A DNA stretch of 64,000 nt from a virus: IMG/VR virus record IMGVR_UViG_3300032053_000048, positions 1 to 64,000 of that record; one strand, written 5' to 3'. The stretch's first letter is position 1, and each line of letters starts with the position of its first letter. The translations under genes and the position numbers were made by a program. The notes beneath the pieces are model-generated. The model saw nothing but the letters and a program-made list of their open reading frames with translations. It did not search any database and was not told the origin of the DNA. This document shows positions 13,401 to 29,935 of the stretch, piece after piece.

Positions 13401-16400
13401 GGAATTCTTCTCGATAACTGGAACAAGGGTCAGACTAAAGGAGTATGGATTTCTATAAATGATAAAGCTCACAGAGATAGCCCTGACTACTGGACAGCAG
13501 TTGGAGGCGATGAAAAGGTATTGATCAAGACTACTCCCAATGCTAAAGGACCTATAAAGATCGAGAAAGGGATATTATTAACAACCTACGGGACCGTAAG
13601 ATCAAAATTTAATCCTAAACTCCGAAGGACCGAGGATGATCTGAAAAACTATTTCTCAGAACCATTTACAAGCAGGGTTCAGCAACTTGCTCAGTGGCTT
13701 GGCAGGGATTTCAGTGGTGTGATAGTTTTTGATGAAAGTCACAATATGGCAAATGCCATATCAACAAGGGGAACGAGGGGTCGTAAGAAACCATCAAATA
13801 CTGCTCTTGCTGGTATGGAATTACAACGTATGCTACCCAATGCAAAGATCATCTATTCATCAGCAACAGGAGCAACGGAGGTTTCAAATCTTGTGTACGC
13901 TCAAAGATTAGGACTTTGGGGTGACGGTACTGCCTTTGAGAAAGCAGATGATTTCATAAATGCCGTTGATACAGCCGGGGTATCCGGTATGGAGATAATA
14001 TCAAAGGACCTCAAATCAATGGGACTCTATACTGCTAAGACTCTTTCTTTTGATGGGGTTGAATATGACACCCTCAGGCATAATCTGGTCCCTGCACAGG
14101 TGAACCTTTATAACCAGGTAGCCGATGCCTGGCAGATAGTATTAAAAAATATTAATGCTGCCATAGAGGTTAATGAAACAAGCAAGGAAGCCAAGGCTGC
14201 AGCAATGTCAGCTTTTTGGGGTGCTCATCAGAGGTTCTTTGGCCAGATCATCAATGCGATGCAGATGCCGACTCTCATCAAGGATATTCAGAAGAATCTT
14301 GATGAAGGTAATGCGGTTGTAGTTCAGCTTGTGAATACAAATGAGATGCAACTCGAAAGAGCCCTCGCAGAAGCAAGAGAGGAATCAGAAGGAGAACTCG
14401 ATCTTGAGGACCTGGACCTTTCGCCCAAAAGTATAATTCTGGATTTTCTTTATAATAGTTTTCCGGTCCAGCAATTTCAGGAAGCAACCGATCAGGATGG
14501 GAATATAGTCAAAGTTCCGGTTATAGATTCCGAAGGTAAACCAGTTCTGAATCCTGAATCAGTTGCGAAACGAGACAAATTACTTGAGGAACTTGATAAG
14601 TCAATAGTTCTTCCAGAGGCACCTATCGATATGTTATTGAATACATTTGGTATTGATAATGTTGCGGAGGCTACAGGAAGGGGAAAGAGAGTTGTTCTTA
14701 AACCAGGCAAGGATGGTAAATTAACCAAACAGGAAGAAACCAGGACTGACTCTAATGTCAAACAGGACGTAAATAACTTCATGGATGGTGAGAAGAATAT
14801 GTTAATATTCTCTAAAGCCGGAGGAACAGGAGCATCTTATCACTCTGATCTTTCAAGAAAGAATCAGAAAAGACGTGTTCATTATGTTTTGCAGGCCGGA
14901 TGGCAGGCTGATGCAGCAATCCAGGGATTTGGCCGTAGTCACCGAAGTAACCAACGAGTACCACCGCTATTTAAACTGGTGACTACCGATCTTAGGGCAC
15001 AAAGAAGATTTCTTTCGTCAATAGCTCGCAGACTGGAACAACTTGGGGCCCTTACTAAAGGCCAGAGAGATACCGGAGGTGCAGGAGTTCTTGACGGTTC
15101 CTATAATCTCGAAGGCCGTTATGCAAAACAGGCTCTTTTTGAATTCTATCAGGACGTTGAAAATGGCAGGGTCCCTGGAGTTGATATGGCTACCTTGGAA
15201 GATCAGATGGCACTTAAAATTTATCGGGAGGACCAAAGCGGAACAAGGGTTTATAACGAGAACGTTATCTTCAATACCAAACAGTTCTTGAATCGCCTGA
15301 TGTCCCTCAGGGTTGATCTCATGGATAAGGTTTTCGATGGGTTTATCAATAAACTTGATGAGGAGGTCAATGCTGCTATTCTGTCGGGGTCGTATGATGC
15401 AGGTATTGAAAATGTCAAGGCCGAAAAGATCAGAGTAGTTGACGAGCAACTAATATATACCGACCCGAGAACCAAAGGTAAAACCTATATAACAACCTTT
15501 GAACTTACGCTAAAGAACGACAAACGGGACTGGAAACGGATAATGGCTGAAACAGCAGCCTACGATCAGTTAGGCAGGTTTATGGGTTATTATCAGGAAA
15601 AAAACTCAGGTAAGATTTATGCTATGGTTCAGCAGAGGATAATGGATGCTGATGGCTCGACAGAGACAAAGATAAAAAGAATGAGTGTTATTGCTGATCA
15701 TCATATCGACTACAGAGAGCTCAGGGAGAAGTACAATGAACTGAAAAAAGATGTGGCTAAGGAAATATGGGATAAGGATTTTGCCGAATATCCTGATTTT
15801 CGTAACCGTACCGAAACTATTGTCAAGGGTCTCATCTTGCCGATCTGGAATCGACTACCAAACAATATCAGTGTCAAGAGATATATCGATGAAAAGGGAC
15901 AGGCTCATCTTGGCAGGTATTTTCCACCCAAGGATATACAGAGGATAGTCAAGGACTTTGAGGTAGCAAGTACTCAGAAATACTCACCGGAACAGATCAA
16001 GAAGATCGTGAAAGATGGTGGCATGGTCCGTATGGCTAACGGTTTTGAATTTACCAAGGGCAAATACCAGGGAATACCGGTGATAAAGATTGAGAATACA
16101 AGGTCATACAGAGATGGCGAAAGGCTTGAACGGTCTGGTGCAACTTTCGTTGTATCCAGTTCTATGACGATGGCTGGTGATTATTATATCTCAATGGACA
16201 AGGCCTCTGATGTGATCAGTGAGATAGAGAGGCTATTCGGAACTACAGTTGTTCATGCCGAGGACTCGGACGGTAACTTTATAATGGCTAAACCCGAGGG
16301 ACCGGCTTTCATGCGCAGGCCCAAGGACCTGAGGGGAGAACCTTCAATATGGGAAGACCCGAGATTTAAACGTTATGAACTGGCCCCGGGAGAATTCGCC

Positions 16401-20735: not shown

Positions 20736-22730
20736 ATGATACGGAACTTTACAGAAGAAACCATCAAATCGAGGACTCTCTCTAAGATCGGTGGTAAACA
20801 GGAGCGGATACTCATGCCGGAGATCAATAATGACAGGGTGGTATTGGCTGAGAATATGAAGCTGCTTGAGATTTGTCGAAATGACTGGCAAAGTCTAAGA
20901 GACGCCCGTACTCGCAGACGCAGGAACCGAAAGTACTATAGAGGCGATCAGTGGAGTGATCTTATCAAGGACCCGGATAAGAGTGACGGTAGTGTAATAA
21001 CTGAGGAAACCTACTTGAAAAAACAGGGGAAGGTCCCATTAAAACAGAATCAGATACGCCAGCTAGTTAAGAACCTTATTGGTCAATACCGGTCCAATCC
21101 ATCAAAGGCAGTTATTATAGCCAGGGACAGGGCAGATGCCAAGACAAGCGAGATGTTGACAAATGCCCTGCAAGCAGCAGAGACCGTCAATAAGGTTGCA
21201 AGTCTTGATCCGAGGTCTTTTGAGGAATTCAGTCTATCGGGTGCTCCAATCCAGAAACTGAGTTATCGGTACTGGAAGCAGTATAATCGTCCTGATCTCT
21301 TTATAGAAAACATCAATTTTAACCGTATATTCTTTAATTCAGACGTTCAGGATATAAGACTAACTGATCTTCGCAGGATTGGTGAGATAATCGATACTAC
21401 AATAGATGATATCGTTGCTACATTTGCGAAGAACAAGGCTGACGAAGCCTATATCAAACAACTCTACCGGACTATCATAACCGAGGATTTCCTTTCTCAG
21501 AGAGGACTTGACCCGACAAAGATGGACAGTCTTGACTTCTTTATTCCCCGGGACCCAAGCAAATGTAGGCTTATTGAGGTATGGGAACTAAAAGGCGAGT
21601 GGAGAACCAAGGCGCACGATCTCATGGATGGGTCCTACAGTATTGTCAAGGAATCATTGAAGGAAATAGCAAAGATTAACCGGCAACGTATTACAATGGG
21701 AACCAAACTTGGAGTTCCTGAGGAAGAAATAGCTCTGATCGAGGCCGAAGAAATATTCGAGCAGTTCTGGTATGTTAAGTTCCTTACTCCTTATGGTCAT
21801 GTACTATTTGAGTCAGAGACCCCTTATAAGCACGAATCACACCCTTATGCTCTGGTACTTTACCCTTTACTGGATGGCGAAGTTTGGGGATTTGTGGAAG
21901 ATATCATCGATCAGCAGAGGTATATCAACCGCCTGATCATTCTTATGGACTTTATCATCAATGCCTCAGCCAAAGGAGTACTGATGATACCGGAAGATTC
22001 AATACCTCCGGGAATGAGTGTCAAGCAGTTTGCTGATGAATGGACCAGGTTTAATGGTGTGATAGTATTCAAGCCAAACAAAATGGGAGTTCTCCCTACG
22101 CAGATACATAATAACTCTACGAACATAGGGATACATGAGATGCTGGCCCTGCAGATGCAGTTAATCACCCAAATTTCAGGTGTACATGAAGCCATGCAGG
22201 GACAAACAGCCAAGTCTGGTACTCCGGCTGCTCTATATGCTCAGGAAGCACAGAACGCATCCCTTAATACCCTGGACTATATTCAGACCTTTAACCAATT
22301 CATTCAGGATAGGGATACCAAGGCACTAAAGATCATCTGTCAGTATTATGACGAGCCGAGATTTCTGGCAGTTAGTGGTAAGTCATACTCCCAGGAAGCT
22401 AAGATGTGGGACCCGGAGAAAGCCCGGGATATCGAATTTGAATTAGTTGTGGTTGCTGGTAATGATACTCCTGTTTACCGGAGCATGATAGATCAGACCC
22501 TACTTGAGATGCTGAAAGCTCAGATGATCGATCTTGAGATGTATCTGGAAAGTTCTACTATGCCTTTTGCTGATCAACTACTGGAAAGCATAAGAAGTAA
22601 GAAACAGTCTGCAGAACAGGGACAGGCACCAGCTGTAAATCCGGGCGACCCGCTTGCTGTTGAGGCATCAAAAGCAAATCCTGATGTTATGTCAAGATTG
22701 ATTCCTGCTATGAACGGTCAGGCAGCATAA
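20736..22730 (+). CDS. Portal protein (P22-like)
   Basis: RKYYRGDQW, N-x-IRQLV, EDIIDQQRYINRL, QISGV...MQG and EAQNA motifs typical of podovirus portals; 664 aa. Confidence 0.9.
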   Translation: MIRNFTEETIKSRTLSKIGGKQERILMPEINNDRVVLAENMKLLEICRNDWQSLRDARTRRRRNRKYYRGDQWSDLIKDPDKSDGSVITEETYLKKQGKVPLKQNQIRQLVKNLIGQYRSNPSKAVIIARDRADAKTSEMLTNALQAAETVNKVASLDPRSFEEFSLSGAPIQKLSYRYWKQYNRPDLFIENINFNRIFFNSDVQDIRLTDLRRIGEIIDTTIDDIVATFAKNKADEAYIKQLYRTIITEDFLSQRGLDPTKMDSLDFFIPRDPSKCRLIEVWELKGEWRTKAHDLMDGSYSIVKESLKEIAKINRQRITMGTKLGVPEEEIALIEAEEIFEQFWYVKFLTPYGHVLFESETPYKHESHPYALVLYPLLDGEVWGFVEDIIDQQRYINRLIILMDFIINASAKGVLMIPEDSIPPGMSVKQFADEWTRFNGVIVFKPNKMGVLPTQIHNNSTNIGIHEMLALQMQLITQISGVHEAMQGQTAKSGTPAALYAQEAQNASLNTLDYIQTFNQFIQDRDTKALKIICQYYDEPRFLAVSGKSYSQEAKMWDPEKARDIEFELVVVAGNDTPVYRSMIDQTLLEMLKAQMIDLEMYLESSTMPFADQLLESIRSKKQSAEQGQAPAVNPGDPLAVEASKANPDVMSRLIPAMNGQAA

Positions 22731-23135
22731 CTAACCTCTAAGGTAAAGGTCAATGATTCTTTTACATTCGTCAAACCCAATCCCGAAATGGCATTTGAAG
22801 TTGCGGTCTGAGAGTTTGAGCATGAAGTCATTCTGTTGTGCAGTATGTTCATTAATGAACGCTCCATTTATCTTAAATATCTTGGAGTCCTCAGATTTGA
22901 TCTCAATGAACAGACCATGATACTTAAAATCCCTACTTGGCTCTATAATAAACAAATCAGGATAACCTTTGCCTCCTTGTATGGACTTGAGTATCCCTGA
23001 CTGTGTTTTCGTAAGATTTAATCCTGTAGGGTCAAAATGATACAGAACATTCGGATACTGCAGTTTTAGGTATAAGGCTATGTTCCGATAGATTTGTGTT
23101 TCCCGGTACTCTTTCATTTTGTAGGTATCCCCCAT
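22731..23135 (-). CDS. VRR-NUC / PD-(D/E)XK nuclease (resolvase-like)
   Basis: E..IY, GYPDLFI, GLFIEIK and Q..F...L motifs. Confidence 0.8.
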   Translation of the reverse strand: MGDTYKMKEYRETQIYRNIALYLKLQYPNVLYHFDPTGLNLTKTQSGILKSIQGGKGYPDLFIIEPSRDFKYHGLFIEIKSEDSKIFKINGAFINEHTAQQNDFMLKLSDRNFKCHFGIGFDECKRIIDLYLRG

Positions 23136-23410
23136 ATTGCATCAAATTGTCTCTGTTGTAGTTCGAGTTGAGCTGCTATATCAGCATCTTTCCATGTTAC
23201 ATGGCTTGCCGGACGTGGCCCTTTGTAAATAATGGACCCTGATCTTCTCCACTCGTCAATAAATTGTTTCAATGACATTCCATCTGGAATATCAACAACA
23301 TCGACTTTAAGAATACCGGTTGGGCCTCCCTGTCCTTCAAGTATCTTAGGAGTTACAGCTACGGCTGCAGCTCCGACAACCAGTTTTGAAAAGAATGATC
23401 TACGATTCAT
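23114..23410 (-). CDS. Small protein with twin-arginine signal and a portal-derived segment
   Basis: MNRRSFFSKLVVGAAAVAV. Its IPDGMSLKQFIDEWRR matches portal IPPGMSVKQFADEWTR. Confidence 0.7.
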   Translation of the reverse strand: MNRRSFFSKLVVGAAAVAVTPKILEGQGGPTGILKVDVVDIPDGMSLKQFIDEWRRSGSIIYKGPRPASHVTWKDADIAAQLELQQRQFDAIWGIPTK

Positions 23411-23855
23411 GGTTTAGTGATTTAAGTTCTTCTGTTTGTATGTTACTTACAGCCTCTATATAAGATTTGCGCTGTATTTCATTACTTGTTACTATAGCAA
23501 AACACTGTGATATCATGTGCTCGTAATCCCTGTACTTTGGAAAGTAAGGTATATTCTTATGCTTGAGTTTCTTTAAGCCTTCAGAATTAACCTCATCGAA
23601 TCCACCTGCTAAGTTACGAAGAATATAATAAGTCCGACCATCGGTTTTATTTCTCATCTTGGCCCGGTAAATAGCTCTATTGATAAGCTTTTCATCTCGC
23701 CTTACATTCCAGACAGATGTTTTAAAACCCCTCCATTCCTGCCAGTCTATCTTTAACCTGGTCCAGATATCCCTGAGGTATCCTGTTACTGCCAGAAATA
23801 CCACTAAAACGAGCAATACTGCTCCTGCGATGATGTAATAAACGTACTTATTCAT
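23400..23855 (-). CDS. Membrane-anchored basic hypothetical protein downstream of terL
   Basis: N-terminal TM helix (YYIIAGAVLLVLVVFLAVTG) followed by a basic domain (RAIYRAKMRNKTDGRTYYIL). Confidence 0.7.
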   Translation of the reverse strand: MNKYVYYIIAGAVLLVLVVFLAVTGYLRDIWTRLKIDWQEWRGFKTSVWNVRRDEKLINRAIYRAKMRNKTDGRTYYILRNLAGGFDEVNSEGLKKLKHKNIPYFPKYRDYEHMISQCFAIVTSNEIQRKSYIEAVSNIQTEELKSLNHES

Positions 23856-23864
23856 ATTTAGAGC

Positions 23865-25862
23865 TTATGAAAAACTTGCTTCTGATTGAACTTCTCTTTC
23901 CTTGCCTGGCTTATATTCCTCGACAATGATCGGCATATCCATGTATTTGAGTGCCATCCATACCCCTCCAGCTCTTGTGATAGCTATGTCATCGTGACTG
24001 CCCTCAACGGCACCAATAGAACCATCGTCTTTGTATTCCAATGTATCCATTTCGTCACAGGCTTTATCCCAACGCTCTAAATAAAGATCGTCTCTAAGGG
24101 CAGCATTATGAGTATTGATGATCAATGATTTCGTACCCGAGTTTGTATGGAATCCCCACTTAATAGGAGCTTTCTGTTTTATCTTTTCTGGGTCTGTTCG
24201 GGCAAAGAGATTATTGTAATACTCCGCAATCTCATCAAGTACAGTTACAAAGTGATCACCCTCCGTATCTTTCCGGGACCTCAGGGAATTAGTTTCTATT
24301 GCCAGCAGGCCCATTCCCCAAAATGAACCTAACTGTGCGCACTTCCAGGCAAAGATATCCTGATCAAGGTGCCCCCACCAGGTAGCAACAATTTCCGGTT
24401 TACCTCCTTCCATCATCCAGTATCTGTCAATAATAGTCAGACATGAGAAGTCTGAGCCGTCTGATCTGCCTCCGATGTCACCAAAGAGAGCGTACCTGTT
24501 CTTGATGTTAACTGTCAAATCCGGCAGGGCCCAAACAAAAAGACTACCCCTGCCATTCTCCTCCAACCTTAGATTTTTAAGACTGTCTGGACCTGTCTGA
24601 GCATCACCCATAATTTCGCCAGTGAACTCCGGCGCTTTACAGTTAACCCTTGCCTTGGCAACATATTCGGCCCGGAATACCCTGCGACCTGTTGATTGAA
24701 ATGCCTCAATATCATTTGACGGATATTCTGACTTCATTCGCCAGTCGTCATAGTTCTCACCATTCTTAAAGTCATAATACCACTTGATGCCTTCCAGGGT
24801 GGCCCCTGCCAGCCATAGGTATTTAGCGTAAGATTCCTTTGTTATGGCCCAAGTAATGAAGTCATACAGATCGGATAACTTGATCTTCTTCTGGTATCTC
24901 TCGATCTCGAACCATGCCACAAAGATCGGGATATATGAACTGGTACCTTTCTTGGCAGCCTGCCATTCCCTGTGAAAGAAATTACCGACTCCCTTGGCTG
25001 TAGATTCCATTACTATAAGGCTATTGGCTATTGTAGGAACTGTTCCTCTAAGTGTCTGAGCCAGGTCCTCTGCGGATTTCATAGCCGTTGATTTCCAGAG
25101 TCCAACCTCAGAAAGGTGCAGCATAGCAAAGTCGTATGATCTAAGATTCTCCGGTTCCTGGGCCGAACCAACTCCGACTATACAGTTCCGCTCCTTGATA
25201 ACCTTTGTCTTTGTCGAACCTTCGTAAGGTACAAATGTAATTCTACCGAATTCCTTAGGATAAAGATTCGCAAGTCTCTTATACATTCCCCGGATATGTT
25301 TCGACTGGTCCTCAACATCTGCAATAATAGCCGAGTGCCAGTTAGTTTCCTGAATTTGTTGCATCCAGGCCATGTATATTTCTACAAGTGTAGAACCTCC
25401 CCATTGACGTGCTTTCAAAAGAATTATCCGTATTGGCACACCCTCTATCCGCATCTTTTCAAGCTGCTTGAGGAGTTTTCGTTGCGCCTTATTAAGAACA
25501 AATGGGACCTCCTTTTTGGTAGTTTTGTGTTGAATCTTTGCACAGACATAAGCCCAAAATTCAAAGTCATATATGAACCTGATCTTGGTTAGTTCGTGCA
25601 TGAAGGTGGCGGTTGTTACCGGGTCCTCGGAATTCAGAGCTTTCTCTATTGAGCCGAGACGTTTGATCTTACGGACAATAGATTGCTCCATATACATTCT
25701 CTCCGGCAAAAAAAGTGAGTAATGGTTAGTATGGTAGAAGAAATCAACCTTAATGCGTTTAATAGGAGAACCAAGGCCTGTACCGGGATTATAGGGAGAG
25801 TTGAGTCGTTCCTTACGAAGGTCGTTTTCCTTTATAATATCTTCTATTTCTTCTTTCGACAT
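23865..25862 (-). CDS. terL: Terminase large subunit
   Basis: ILLKARQWGGST (Walker A), HLSEVG (Walker B), MESTAKGVGNFFH, nuclease motifs GDIGG...DFS and HDD. Confidence 0.93.
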   Translation of the reverse strand: MSKEEIEDIIKENDLRKERLNSPYNPGTGLGSPIKRIKVDFFYHTNHYSLFLPERMYMEQSIVRKIKRLGSIEKALNSEDPVTTATFMHELTKIRFIYDFEFWAYVCAKIQHKTTKKEVPFVLNKAQRKLLKQLEKMRIEGVPIRIILLKARQWGGSTLVEIYMAWMQQIQETNWHSAIIADVEDQSKHIRGMYKRLANLYPKEFGRITFVPYEGSTKTKVIKERNCIVGVGSAQEPENLRSYDFAMLHLSEVGLWKSTAMKSAEDLAQTLRGTVPTIANSLIVMESTAKGVGNFFHREWQAAKKGTSSYIPIFVAWFEIERYQKKIKLSDLYDFITWAITKESYAKYLWLAGATLEGIKWYYDFKNGENYDDWRMKSEYPSNDIEAFQSTGRRVFRAEYVAKARVNCKAPEFTGEIMGDAQTGPDSLKNLRLEENGRGSLFVWALPDLTVNIKNRYALFGDIGGRSDGSDFSCLTIIDRYWMMEGGKPEIVATWWGHLDQDIFAWKCAQLGSFWGMGLLAIETNSLRSRKDTEGDHFVTVLDEIAEYYNNLFARTDPEKIKQKAPIKWGFHTNSGTKSLIINTHNAALRDDLYLERWDKACDEMDTLEYKDDGSIGAVEGSHDDIAITRAGGVWMALKYMDMPIIVEEYKPGKEREVQSEASFS

Positions 25863-26183: not shown

Positions 26184-27173
26184 ATGGGAGAAGGTGGAAG
26201 TTCATCAGGTGCATCAGCAGGTTCAGGCGCAGTAGCAGCAGCAACCAGCGAGGGTGCAGTGGCAACCTCTGATGGTGCAAAATCATCAAAAGAGGGAGTA
26301 TCAGAAGGAACAAAAGAGGCCTCGCCGGAGGCAAAGACTGAGAAAGTGGGTGCGGTTATAGATGCCAAACCTGTGACTGTCGAGGAAGTCAAAGACAAAT
26401 CGACTATAAACAAAGATGCTGTTGAAAAACCAAAACACAAACACGCCGAGAGGCTTGCCAAGGCATATCCAGATCGTCAGTTCTCTGGCGATGAAGATTA
26501 CGATAAAGCTCTTGACGAACATCTCAGTGATCTTGAAGGATACAGGGAGCGAGGTACGAAAGCAAATGCTCAACTCGTTCAGCTCTTTGATGCTGAACCC
26601 TGGGTGGCTGATCTTGTAAGGTCAATGATCAATGGTGAATCAGGCAGGGTAGCAATATCAAGACATTTCAGTGCTGAGGATTTTATATCGGAGCCGGGAG
26701 ATGAGGACCATGAAGCTCTTGAAAAGAACAAGAAGGAAAGAGCCGAAAGGATTGAGAAATCAAACAAGTTCAATCAGCAGTTTAATGAGAACGTTGAGTT
26801 TTCAACAAAGACTATTGATGAGTTTGCTAAGGAAAATAACCTGAAACCGGAGGAAGCTCAGAAGTTCTTTGATGATTTTGATTTAATATTGGCTGACATA
26901 TATGCCGGTAAGATCACCAAAGAGACACTTACAAAGATTATGAGGGCAGTTAAGCATGATGAGGCTGTTCAGGCAGCAAAGGAAGAAGGAGAGATAAAAG
27001 GCCGAAATGAGAAGATTACTATTGAGAAAGAGAAGGAATCAGCTATTAAAGAAAAAACAGATGGCCTTCCGGTGTTAGGAAAGACTGGTGAGGAAAGCAA
27101 GGAAGAAGAAGTAAGGCCTGTAAGCAAGATCGACCAGATTCTTGAGAATACCAAGCGAAGAACAAATTTTTAG
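26184..27173 (+). CDS. Putative capsid scaffolding protein
   Basis: Disordered N-terminus and charged helical body, immediately upstream of the capsid gene. Confidence 0.7.
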   Translation: MGEGGSSSGASAGSGAVAAATSEGAVATSDGAKSSKEGVSEGTKEASPEAKTEKVGAVIDAKPVTVEEVKDKSTINKDAVEKPKHKHAERLAKAYPDRQFSGDEDYDKALDEHLSDLEGYRERGTKANAQLVQLFDAEPWVADLVRSMINGESGRVAISRHFSAEDFISEPGDEDHEALEKNKKERAERIEKSNKFNQQFNENVEFSTKTIDEFAKENNLKPEEAQKFFDDFDLILADIYAGKITKETLTKIMRAVKHDEAVQAAKEEGEIKGRNEKITIEKEKESAIKEKTDGLPVLGKTGEESKEEEVRPVSKIDQILENTKRRTNF

Positions 27174-27210
27174 TGTGACAGTTATATATATTAACCAAAT
27201 TTTTTATCAA

Positions 27211-28596
27211 ATGAAGAAGAACCTTTTTTACTACGGGTCCAAAATATTAGGGGTGACATTTATCTGCGCCCTGATTTTCATATTTAATGGACTACTGGCC
27301 ATTGGGTCAGGGATTGCTTATGCTACCGTTACCGGAGCTGTCGTTGATGGAACCGCTGTATCGGTGGAGAAAGTGAAAGCCGGTTCTACTATTGACAGGG
27401 ATTATGTGAGCAAGAAGATTACGGAGATGCGCCCCGCAGCCACTCCTCTTGATACAATCCTTAGATCGATAGAGAACCAGGTAAGTGTCAGTTCGTTTAA
27501 GACAGAGTTTTACGCTGTTTCATCCAGGGAACTTATTGATACCGTTAATACAGCATATACCTATGCTGGCGATGGTGTAACAAGTTACGACCTGATTGTT
27601 AATAACGTAACTGCATGGACTGATGATGATACTTGTGTATTCCCCGGGCTTGTCGGCGCAACGGTCGGCTCAGGTACTGGTGATGGCAAGGACCTTGTTT
27701 GTTTTGTAGTCTCCCGTAACGTATCCGCAAACACTATTAAGATTCAGCCTATTAATAGTCAGTTCGGTACTGGTGCCAATGCTGCCAAGGTTGTATTACC
27801 TGCAGCAGGAATCGCAATCAACCAGACTATCGTTAGGATGGGAACCTGTAAGAACGAACTTGATGCTCAGACTGCAGCTTATGGTATCGTTCCTGTAAAA
27901 GCTTATAACTACCTTCAGATATTCATGGCACAGGCCGAAGAAGGTACATTCCAGAGACTGCATGAGAAAGAAGTTGATTTCTCGTTCTCTGACTATGAAG
28001 CTCAGAACATCTATGACATGAGAGCCCGTATGGAGTATTCATTCCTGTTCGGTGTTCGTGGATTGTTCTATGATGTTACCAACAACAAACAGCGCTATAT
28101 GACTGGTGGTATTACAAGATCAATTACCACAGCTCTTGAGTATGGCGTAGGTTCCGGTGACAGGACCATTGATAATCCAACGGTTATCAACTGGACCAAA
28201 TCAATATTCACCGGGAACTCAGGAAGTGACCGTAGGATTATGTTCATGGGTAATGCTTTTGCTGCCTACATGATGGGTGCTGATACAGTTCAGCGTCAGA
28301 TCGATGCCAAGAAAACCGAAAGGGTTTATGGTATCACATTCAATCTTGTTGAGACTAACTTTGGTCAGTTGCTTTGTAAACATCACAACCTGCTTGATAT
28401 TGCCGGTTGGGGAGAGAAAGCAATCGTTATCGACCTTAACTATCTTGAGAAACATACATGGAAGCCGATGGCAATTCGTGAACTCGACCTTCTTAGTTCA
28501 GGAACACGTAATGTAAAGGCTACAGTTATCGAAGAAACAACCGGACCTGTTTTAAGGTATCCGAGTGTTCATGGAATAATTAGTCCTAAAGCCTAA
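27211..28596 (+). CDS. Major capsid protein (SU10/DUF5309-like HK97 fold) with hydrophobic N-terminal leader
   Basis: ATG at 27211 after an A/T-rich leader. Motifs RPAATPLD, YNYLQIF, MEYSFLFG, RYMTGGI and ETNFGQL; followed by a terminator. Confidence 0.85.
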   Translation: MKKNLFYYGSKILGVTFICALIFIFNGLLAIGSGIAYATVTGAVVDGTAVSVEKVKAGSTIDRDYVSKKITEMRPAATPLDTILRSIENQVSVSSFKTEFYAVSSRELIDTVNTAYTYAGDGVTSYDLIVNNVTAWTDDDTCVFPGLVGATVGSGTGDGKDLVCFVVSRNVSANTIKIQPINSQFGTGANAAKVVLPAAGIAINQTIVRMGTCKNELDAQTAAYGIVPVKAYNYLQIFMAQAEEGTFQRLHEKEVDFSFSDYEAQNIYDMRARMEYSFLFGVRGLFYDVTNNKQRYMTGGITRSITTALEYGVGSGDRTIDNPTVINWTKSIFTGNSGSDRRIMFMGNAFAAYMMGADTVQRQIDAKKTERVYGITFNLVETNFGQLLCKHHNLLDIAGWGEKAIVIDLNYLEKHTWKPMAIRELDLLSSGTRNVKATVIEETTGPVLRYPSVHGIISPKA

Positions 28597-29107: not shown

Positions 29108-29935
29108 ATGAACCGGGAAGGAATTCTCAATATGGTGCATATCAAAATGGATGAGTTCACTCCTCCCGGGGTGGACCTTCCCTTTGATGATTTCATTGGA
29201 CCCATACTTGATGAGTGCGCCAAGGAAATTGCAGAGGTTTGCCCTCTGCACTTGCTTATTCCGGTCCCTATGGTATGTTATACTACAAAGCGAAAGATCG
29301 ATACAAATATTGCGACACTCACATTCAACTCATCTCATAATTTCCAGTTGGGGAGTGTTGTTAACATCTCAGGTATTACAACTCATCTTGAATACAATGG
29401 AACATTCACAATCACTGCCGTAACAACGGACTCTATAAGTTATGCACTTACTCATGCTGATGAGACCGAGGCCACAGATACCGGTGGAATTGTAATGTTC
29501 AAAACAATATTTACTGACAATAAGGCTTATATCTCCAAGCCGTCAGACTTCTTACGCCTCTATGCCCTCAGATTCCCTTTATGGCAGAGAACGGTAATAG
29601 AGACCACTAAGCCAGACACAGACGCTGGAAGAAATCAGGATAATCCTTACCTGGCATCAGGAATAGGAAGACCGTCTGTAGTGATCAAAACAGCAATGCC
29701 AACAGGAGGGAGCATGGGAGAATATCTGATCTGCGGTAAGGTTGAGACAAGTACCATACCATCGACAGCTCTCTACATCAAAATTAAGGCCCCTGAGGAA
29801 TTACCCGATTCCCTTATCCCTGCTCTCTCTTATCTGGCAGCTGCCAAGGTACTCGCTATATCGAAGGAATTCGATCTGGCAAAGTCAGCAATGGACCAAT
29901 ATGGGTTATCGCTAACGCAGTTAGCTCAATCATAG
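29108..29935 (+). CDS. Head-tail adaptor-like protein with inserted FCCH-like beta domain
   Basis: KPSDFLRLYALRFPLW and LIPALSYLAAAKVL resemble adaptor/tail tubular A proteins; insertion at ~29285-29488. Confidence 0.6.
   Translation: MNREGILNMVHIKMDEFTPPGVDLPFDDFIGPILDECAKEIAEVCPLHLLIPVPMVCYTTKRKIDTNIATLTFNSSHNFQLGSVVNISGITTHLEYNGTFTITAVTTDSISYALTHADETEATDTGGIVMFKTIFTDNKAYISKPSDFLRLYALRFPLWQRTVIETTKPDTDAGRNQDNPYLASGIGRPSVVIKTAMPTGGSMGEYLICGKVETSTIPSTALYIKIKAPEELPDSLIPALSYLAAAKVLAISKEFDLAKSAMDQYGLSLTQLAQS

Follow-up and report, generated by a model that had tools for sequence, protein, structure and literature searches.

A leader-bearing mini-protein encoded near the terminase gene of a virus carries a relative of a portal clip segment

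What use might a phage have for a small protein that joins an export-type leader to a piece of its own portal? The question is raised by a 98-residue open reading frame (ORF), here called the mini-protein, on the minus strand of a 64,000-nucleotide stretch of viral DNA, positions 1 to 64,000 of IMG/VR record IMGVR_UViG_3300032053_000048 (the window), which belongs to a complete 72,897-bp genome record with direct terminal repeats. The original prediction had described this ORF as a twin-arginine-signal microprotein carrying a copy of the portal clip, encoded among the terminase genes and kept alike by selection at the protein level; the ORF list bears out the frame and its leader. We favour the reading, to which we give a probability of roughly 0.4, that the product is a membrane-targeted, late-expressed microprotein that would mimic an interface of the portal and thereby modulate the assembly of heads or the packaging of DNA, where the membrane targeting, the late co-expression, the mimicry and the partner are each steps that we infer.

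Ungapped, the mini-protein aligns with residues 414–438 of the phage's own portal (from nucleotide 21975) and is identical to them at 14 of 25 positions, the core accounting for 12 of 16, exactly as had been reported. By BLASTP, mini-protein residues 32–95 match portal residues 414–483 at an expect value (E) of 5e-8, with 26/70 identities and 6 gapped positions. The Smith-Waterman score of 89 compares with 31.4 ± 4.6 for shuffled sequences and is reached by none of 2000 shuffles (p ~2e-8 from a Gumbel fit to the shuffle scores), so that the alignment withstands the comparison with shuffles on which it might have fallen. The signal is confined to the core: residues 29–64 score 85, again reached by none of 2000 shuffles, and residues 65–98 score 20 against portal 446–500, a value reached by 941 of 5000 shuffles and not significant. 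These C-terminal 34 residues match nothing else in related loci either. Because only 79 of 192 nucleotides (nt) in the aligned codons are identical (41%), and different codons are used at 19 of the 24 identical residues, the similarity lies at the protein level, as the prediction had held. On these comparisons the mini-protein core is an old protein-level relative of the portal segment and no recent DNA repeat.

The same correspondence is found between families. Alignment of the mini-protein family with the portal alignment by hhalign gave a probability of 96.6% and E 6.7e-10 over 36 columns, pairing mini-protein residues 31–66 with portal residues 413–449, and the residues kept by the family, Pro42, Met45, Trp53 and Gly58, are the near-invariant P424, M427, W436 and G441 of the portals. 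No family was returned for the window mini-protein by Pfam (E <= 1), PHROGs or NCBIfam (E <= 10). With 98 residues, of which ~36 are similar, it has neither the full portal fold nor the Pfam match of a P22-like portal (PF16510) and is, judged in this way, a derivative of a portal segment, not a portal.

Relatives of the mini-protein came from a full HMMER scan of 1.84 billion representatives (E <= 0.001). Its 37 matches comprised the query, 15 small-protein clusters (67–146 residues) and 21 giant repeat proteins (973–4909 residues). Word-index protein searches had found the query alone, and nothing among longer proteins; full profile searches can thus resolve small ORFs that look like orphans. 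The 15 small-protein clusters, two of which are identical to ORFs in loci L020 and L021, have the build of the window mini-protein, with a leader (M-N-R-[KR]-x-F-[FL]-K-K, a G/A/V-rich stretch, P-x-[IV]-L-A), a short linker and a clip-like core (I-P-D-G-M-[ST]..E.F...W...G.L.Y). Across 19 family sequences, which are 28–48% identical to that of the window, M1, R3, F6 and P21 of the leader and P42 and G58 of the core are invariant. We assembled a clade sample of 80 viral contigs with portals of this clade, holding 7571 ORFs in total. Of the 80 clade portals the family profile matches 66 (E <= 1e-5 for 61), and beyond the portals it picks out only 14 small ORFs and no other large ORF; it also matches 66 large ORFs in 80 further genome-derived loci. 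The likeness to the portal is accordingly a trait of the family. Over the whole 72,897-bp genome the profile matches only the mini-protein ORF and portal segment 21966–22118.

The giant proteins raise the prospect that the portal likeness is incidental and that the mini-protein is an Ig-like repeat fragment of giant bacterial surface proteins: they make up 21 of the 37 HMMER matches, with E down to 5.7e-27, and Ig, cadherin, AIR9 or DUF4347 domains are present in five. We regard this as very improbable. The repeats of P0002 score 5.1–7.8 bits each, the best single domain of P0003 scores 12.0, and the totals are sums over up to 18 repeats; moreover, the matched stretch is a confident helix (predicted local distance difference test score, pLDDT, ~90) in the AlphaFold2 (AF2) model, and the family profile selects portals specifically. 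In the three giants examined (P0002, P0003 and P0009), where no single domain exceeds 12.0 bits, the match is a summation artefact, and the Ig-repeat identity was rejected.

On the portal, the copied piece maps to the clip. The AF2 model of the portal (mean pLDDT 65.7; 59–70 per 10-residue block over residues 401–480), whose best Foldseek matches are podophage portals (E down to 6.7e-19), has a long helix at 386–413, strand 415–419, helix 429–435, strands 441–445 and 455–457 and helix 466–481, followed by a disordered loop at 483–509 and a long helix at 512–537. In SPP1 gp6, as described, the clip sits between helices α3 and α5 and is where bonding between subunits is most extensive, and residues of its β12–α4 loop are required for terminase contact and later for adaptor binding; a portal review has the clip touch the packaging machinery first and the adaptor afterwards, and the SPP1 account describes the clip as covered by the adaptor in virions. 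Because the AF2 order of stem helix, clip, stem helix and tunnel loop matches that of SPP1 gp6, we assign the copied segment, which lies between helices 386–413 and 466–481, to the clip, in agreement with the assignment first made from position. The shared I-P-D/P-G-M-S motif falls on the clip loop and helix start of the portal model.

The AF2 model of the mini-protein (mean pLDDT 68.9; 79–90 over residues 31–60) has a helix at 47–57, strands at 59–61 and 70–72 and a helix at 76–93. Four of five portal elements recur in it in the same order, and the order of its C-terminal elements is that of portal strand 455–457 and then helix 466–481. The models support the view that the copied piece corresponds to the strand, loop, helix and strand of the clip, a positional homology that refers to a modelled and not a solved structure of this portal. 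A sequence search of the PDB with the mini-protein gave one chance 23-residue match (E 0.11). Portal chains of phicrAss001 were the top Foldseek rows for the mini-protein, at E 2.5–5.4 and probability <= 0.08, which is no evidence of kinship. Complex prediction for the portal with mini-protein residues 28–98 scored 0.00, which gives no verdict in either direction.

What does the leader do? Its residues 2–7, N-R-R-S-F-F, fit the twin-arginine translocation (Tat) consensus, given as Z-R-R-x-Phi-Phi near the N-terminus, as had been proposed. The window mini-protein matches a hidden Markov model (HMM) of the leader at E 4.2e-15, its Kyte-Doolittle maximum over 15 residues is 1.97 (range 1.5–2.4 over 21 unique leaders), and a Pro and a basic residue stand ahead of the leader end. 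A formate-dehydrogenase Tat model matches 5 of 16 members (best E 0.008) and TIGR01409 matches 2 of 16 (best E 0.02); among the language-model neighbours, which serve as leads only, are the small subunit of a periplasmic hydrogenase (0.85) and a TAT_signal cluster (0.82). In a metagenome scan, a near-identical leader of the R-K type was found at the head of bacterial enzymes of 290–467 residues (L085–L088). Because the same leader type heads ordinary bacterial enzymes, we read it as a host-style targeting signal, one that should take the mini-protein to the cytoplasmic membrane. No TatC was found in the phage genome by a search that was positive in the control genome of Bacteroides thetaiotaomicron.

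By eye, the proteins of L085–L088, which have the leader type M-N-R-K-S-F-L-K, resemble a metallophosphoesterase, a pirin, a protein with a metallo-beta-lactamase fold and a member of the enolase superfamily. In these organisms R-K thus appears to be a naturally occurring form of the twin-arginine motif. A 127-residue ORF of an unrelated viral contig (L001, 6001–6384, plus strand) opens with almost the same eight residues and has a leader of Tat-like character, joined to an unrelated cargo; the ORF belongs to a replication module that also contains polymerase and ligase-like genes.

The mini-protein gene stands within a string of genes that run in one direction, as the original prediction had placed it: a 71-residue ORF, the large terminase (TerL), a 151-residue gene (p151), the mini-protein and a VRR-NUC-like gene, a string convergent with the plus-strand portal gene. 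It overlaps the end of its upstream neighbour by 11 nt and the start of its downstream neighbour by 22 nt, and no TAnnTTTG motif occurs on the minus strand at 23411–24349. Because of these overlaps and the missing motif, co-transcription with TerL is the simplest reading. We take the ORF to be a real gene, probably transcribed together with TerL. Occurrences of the -7 promoter motif in the window hardly exceed expectation (63 against 50.4 ± 6.2, a count reached by 3 of 100 shuffles), with none immediately upstream of the mini-protein ORF; sigma-70 and terminator scans gave background level only. For window positions 22500–24100, identical pieces were also seen among the contigs of a second sediment-metagenome run, which belongs to a different study; more than one sample therefore contains this phage or one almost identical to it. 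Contigs from the two DNA runs show zero differences from the window, the second run having gaps over most of the mini-protein ORF. The 151-residue protein of the window begins with a transmembrane-like hydrophobic helix that is found in 1 of 17 unique sequences, the window copy only; the 16 other unique homologues start ~27 residues later.

How widely is the gene kept? The 80 viral contigs share a layout of portal, variable interval, opposite-strand TerL and then scaffold and capsid genes. Across the 38 unique loci that hold both portal and TerL the interval spans -11 to 7912 nt, and a leader-bearing mini-protein lies in it in six. Mini-proteins also occur in L007–L009, where TerL falls out of range. 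L003 and L034, whose portals are 77–78% identical, are the two closest relatives that have a member, and in both the gene lies between p151 and VRR-NUC homologues, as in the window. The family was found in none of the 80 genome-derived portal loci, where the leader HMM also found no ORF, and in no cultured phage of the phage collection (best E 0.3); the family alignment A2 found no relatives in the genome collection. About 72 of the 80 genome-derived loci stand under Bacteroidota names, clade portals come mostly from Bacteroidota assemblies, and the nearest cultured phages, with portals 38–39% identical, infect Bacteroides.

Such a pattern could be that of a neutral chimeric leftover of illegitimate recombination in a hotspot, with no function. 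The hypervariable interval, the lack of a member in most relatives, the mosaic cargo segments and a third-position GC content (GC3) of 0.26 against 0.46 for the portal gene (overall GC 0.42 against 0.44) would all agree with it. We nonetheless consider this unlikely, as every member keeps an open frame that starts at the leader, the invariant residues of leader and core persist at 28–48% identity while synonymous sites are saturated, and the position is kept in L003 and L034; the residues kept are, besides, those kept in portals.

The clip is one of several cargos joined to such leaders. Against a background in which the best of 500 shuffled cargos reached 32 bits and the 99th percentile lay at 26.9, the metagenomic protein P0017 carries, after the leader and clip-like core, a 45-residue stretch that matches the middle of the clade scaffold protein (47.4 bits, E 1e-9; E 2.8e-5 against the product of window 26184–27173). 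Locus L021 has two tandem leader-bearing mini-protein genes (14714–14980 and 14988–15263, both minus strand), the second of which carries a copy of the capsid N-arm (42.7 bits, E 1.7e-8) and, after it, a stretch that weakly matches the N-terminal motif of its own portal (residues 37–76; 28.5 bits). P0020 and a protein of L008 are borderline matches to the capsid N-arm (32.0 and 28.9 bits), and the portal–TerL interval of L018 holds a clip-like ORF without a leader (43.1 bits). The metagenome scan with P0017 returned leader matches on bacterial enzymes and one 96-residue ORF only, and did not recover its own contig.

We propose that these leader-bearing proteins with head-protein segments are a new family, and the window mini-protein has its start-codon leader, its head-protein cargo and its portal–TerL position. 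The newness rests on architecture and family membership, not on mechanism. A literature search, as far as it reached, turned up no account of mini-proteins made from portal fragments, of comparable phage proteins with a Tat leader or of portal decoys, and a search on capsid proteins with transmembrane N-termini and DUF5309, with the same reach, turned up nothing on such mini-proteins.

The head proteins of the clade also have a membrane theme. All 26 unique clade capsid proteins start with a basic N-terminus and a strongly hydrophobic segment of 25–35 residues, placed before the conserved N-arm motif, and none of the 26 scaffold proteins has a hydrophobic N-terminus; a hydrophobic segment likewise opens the capsid protein of BS-TP4, a cultured Bacteroides phage. 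These termini suggest membrane-associated head assembly or an unusual propeptide. In BS-TP4 (L084, PQ571277.1), a gene annotated as having a rhomboid domain (13468–13986, minus strand; 172 residues, multi-pass hydrophobic) lies directly upstream of the terminase, which that record annotates as a tail spike. The rhomboid-domain protein could process the capsid leader; a search for a rhomboid in the genome of the window's phage gave no match.

The membrane-held microprotein would work as follows. Its leader, of a type that Bacteroidota-like bacteria put on exported enzymes, would carry it to the cytoplasmic membrane, and its cargo would be an old, diverged copy of the clip's strand, exposed loop, helix and strand. 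In solved portals this element pairs with the adjacent subunit and is contacted by terminase and then by adaptor. Held at the membrane, the clip module might occupy or recruit a usual clip partner, be it a portal subunit edge, TerL or the adaptor, for which the 275-residue product of window 29108–29935 is a candidate, and occupation or recruitment of that partner would tune head assembly or packaging. We favour this reading because an interaction-module cargo, an export leader, linkage to packaging genes and the membrane theme of the head proteins come together in it.

Several results weigh against it. A cargo behind a Tat- or Sec-type leader would normally end up in the periplasm, separated from portal, TerL and adaptor. 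The twin positions of the 21 unique leaders read R-R in 5, R-K in 15 and R-G in 1. The fourth position after the conserved Pro is Ala in 13 of 21 leaders and Glu in that of the window, and because Glu replaces Ala at the presumed site, cleavage of the window leader is doubtful. No curated Tat model is matched over its cut-off, and the window mini-protein matches none; short signal-peptide models seldom reach their own cut-offs. With the mini-protein model, Foldseek found nothing at E <= 0.001, and a wide structure search with VIA-align found no chain above Z 2.2. The family is sporadic, in 6/38 close loci, 0/80 genome-derived loci and no cultured phage, and is for that reason dispensable for assembly. 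Its cargo finds its own portal as best match, at rank 1 of 67, but over nine mini-proteins the own portal ranks 1, 3, 6, 8, 10, 13, 24, 25 and 31 of 67, so that the co-varying pairs to be expected of a matched interface are weakly in evidence, and such cognate matching as there is can be explained by shared descent.

The usual destination of such leaders is the starting point of the main rival reading, in which the mini-protein is fully exported to the periplasm by the Tat or Sec route, is cleaved or anchored by its N-terminus, and acts on incoming phages or on lysis timing; copies of docking motifs from head proteins could bind the internal or ejected proteins of superinfecting relatives, on which the matching sites are found, during their passage through the periplasm. 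Periplasmic exclusion proteins are known from other phages. The leader type is shared with bacterial enzymes and fits the Tat consensus, the Ala at the leader end in 13/21 would suit a signal-peptidase site, a fast-evolving, sporadic family in a hypervariable interval (-11 to 7912 nt) is usual for accessory conflict genes, and portal, capsid N-arm and scaffold segments would be apt cargos. Overlap with its neighbours in a string that runs with TerL, and the lack of a separate promoter motif, make this an unusual location for an exclusion gene, however; in virions the adaptor covers the clip; the clip-like ORF in the same interval of L018 is leaderless; and the window leader has no Ala at the presumed cleavage site. 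We view full export as possible but on balance doubtful.

A decoy in the cytoplasm, where conserved linear pieces of head proteins would soak up a host immune sensor, or a satellite's capsid-redirecting protein, aimed at portal, capsid or scaffold, appears to us an improbable role. Sensors of the STAND/Avs type are reported to bind portal, terminase and capsid proteins directly, the cargos copy portal, capsid and scaffold segments, and the gene diverges quickly and is patchily distributed. Yet these sensors are described as recognising whole folds through extended interfaces, which, with a copied core of ~36 residues, weakens the suggestion of an Avs-type portal decoy made in the original prediction, as does the weak cognate co-variation. 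A copy of the trigger would further be expected to activate the sensor instead of blocking it, the conserved export-type leader would be left without a role, and no paper on a portal decoy turned up in the literature search. The interpretation first given for this locus is in all partly supported.

A broader form of the microprotein proposal takes portal clip, portal N-terminal motif, capsid N-arm and scaffold segment together as a set of leader-tagged self-fragments, an interface-mimicry system at or beyond the cytoplasmic membrane. This is a tentative idea that we rate as rather unlikely. The set might organise capsid assembly and packaging on the membrane, beside the capsid proteins with hydrophobic leaders, or it might use the contacts that keep internal proteins within a capsid to trap those of superinfecting relatives in the periplasm.

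Known systems resemble the mini-protein in part. With the portal clip (P22-like PF16510; SPP1 gp6) it shares homology to residues 413–449, the order of elements and the motif of the loop that contacts terminase and adaptor, but it is a free-standing protein of 98 residues, without wing, stem helix α3, crown or barrel, and bears an export-type leader. Like Tat signal peptides, that leader combines the motif with a G/A-rich stretch of moderate hydrophobicity and has a Pro and a basic residue ahead of its end; unlike Tat substrates, the cargo is no cofactor enzyme but part of a virion protein from the cytoplasm, and most members have R-K. The microProteins (miPs) of plants and animals are small proteins that hold only the interaction domain of a larger protein and act through it. 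The mini-protein is likewise a small paralogue with one interaction module of a large multi-domain protein of the same genome, but it is viral and is fused to a membrane or export leader. In T4, portal initiation is membrane-bound and involves gp20 with the membrane protein gp40. The mini-protein would similarly link the portal or head assembly to the cytoplasmic membrane, in a clade whose capsid proteins have hydrophobic N-termini; its sequence, in contrast, is unrelated, it is dispensable in most relatives, and, from the topology expected of its leader, the cargo would lie outside the cytoplasm. T4 Spackle and TP-J34 Ltp are periplasmic or surface superinfection-exclusion proteins, and the mini-protein is also small, signal-bearing and encoded in an accessory region, and could meet incoming virion parts; those proteins, however, are no copies of their own phage's head proteins, and the mini-protein gene sits in the terminase string.

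If the microprotein reading is right, phages would use a trick of eukaryotic microproteins, an interaction module excised from a structural protein, and add to it a host export or targeting signal. The mini-protein would then offer a handle on how the clip is recognised by terminase, adaptor and portal, on membrane-sited head assembly in this clade of Bacteroidota phages, and on a possible new interference between phages or between phage and host.

Table 1. Positions in the window of the mini-protein gene, its parts and the neighbouring genes.
Feature	Position	Strand	Basis or remark
Mini-protein gene	23114..23410	-	98 residues + stop; ORF list; family profile E 1.6e-33
Mini-protein leader, residues 1–26	23333..23410	-	N-R-R-S-F-F, G/A/V-rich hydrophobic stretch, Pro, then K-I-L-E
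Mini-protein clip-like core, residues 31–66	23213..23320	-	Homologous to portal 413–449
Mini-protein C-terminal part, residues 67–98	23117..23212	-	AF2 strand 70–72 and helix 76–93; variable in the family
Portal gene, 664 residues, P22-like	20736..22730	+	PF16510 E 4.6e-43; phrog_156 E 3e-74
Portal clip segment, residues 413–449, counterpart of the mini-protein core	21972..22082	+	BLASTP, hhalign, family profile
VRR-NUC-like nuclease gene, 134 residues, downstream of the mini-protein	22731..23135	-	phrog_824 E 3e-11; PF08774 E 0.043, under cut-off
151-residue gene (p151), between TerL and the mini-protein	23400..23855	-	Homologues come after TerL in related loci
Large terminase gene (TerL), heads the same-direction string	23865..25862	-	phrog_2 E 2.6e-17; phrog_24361 E 3.3e-7
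Capsid gene	27142..28596	+	Hydrophobic N-terminus; likewise L003, L004, L013, L030, L033 and others

The terminase genes themselves vary in the clade. In L003 (5862–8969), L016, L017, L035, L052 and L054 the TerL ORF has ~1030–1045 residues instead of ~665, and the extra middle part of the L003 protein matches PHROGs annotated as ribonucleotide reductase or helicase; this looks like an insertion of the intein type.

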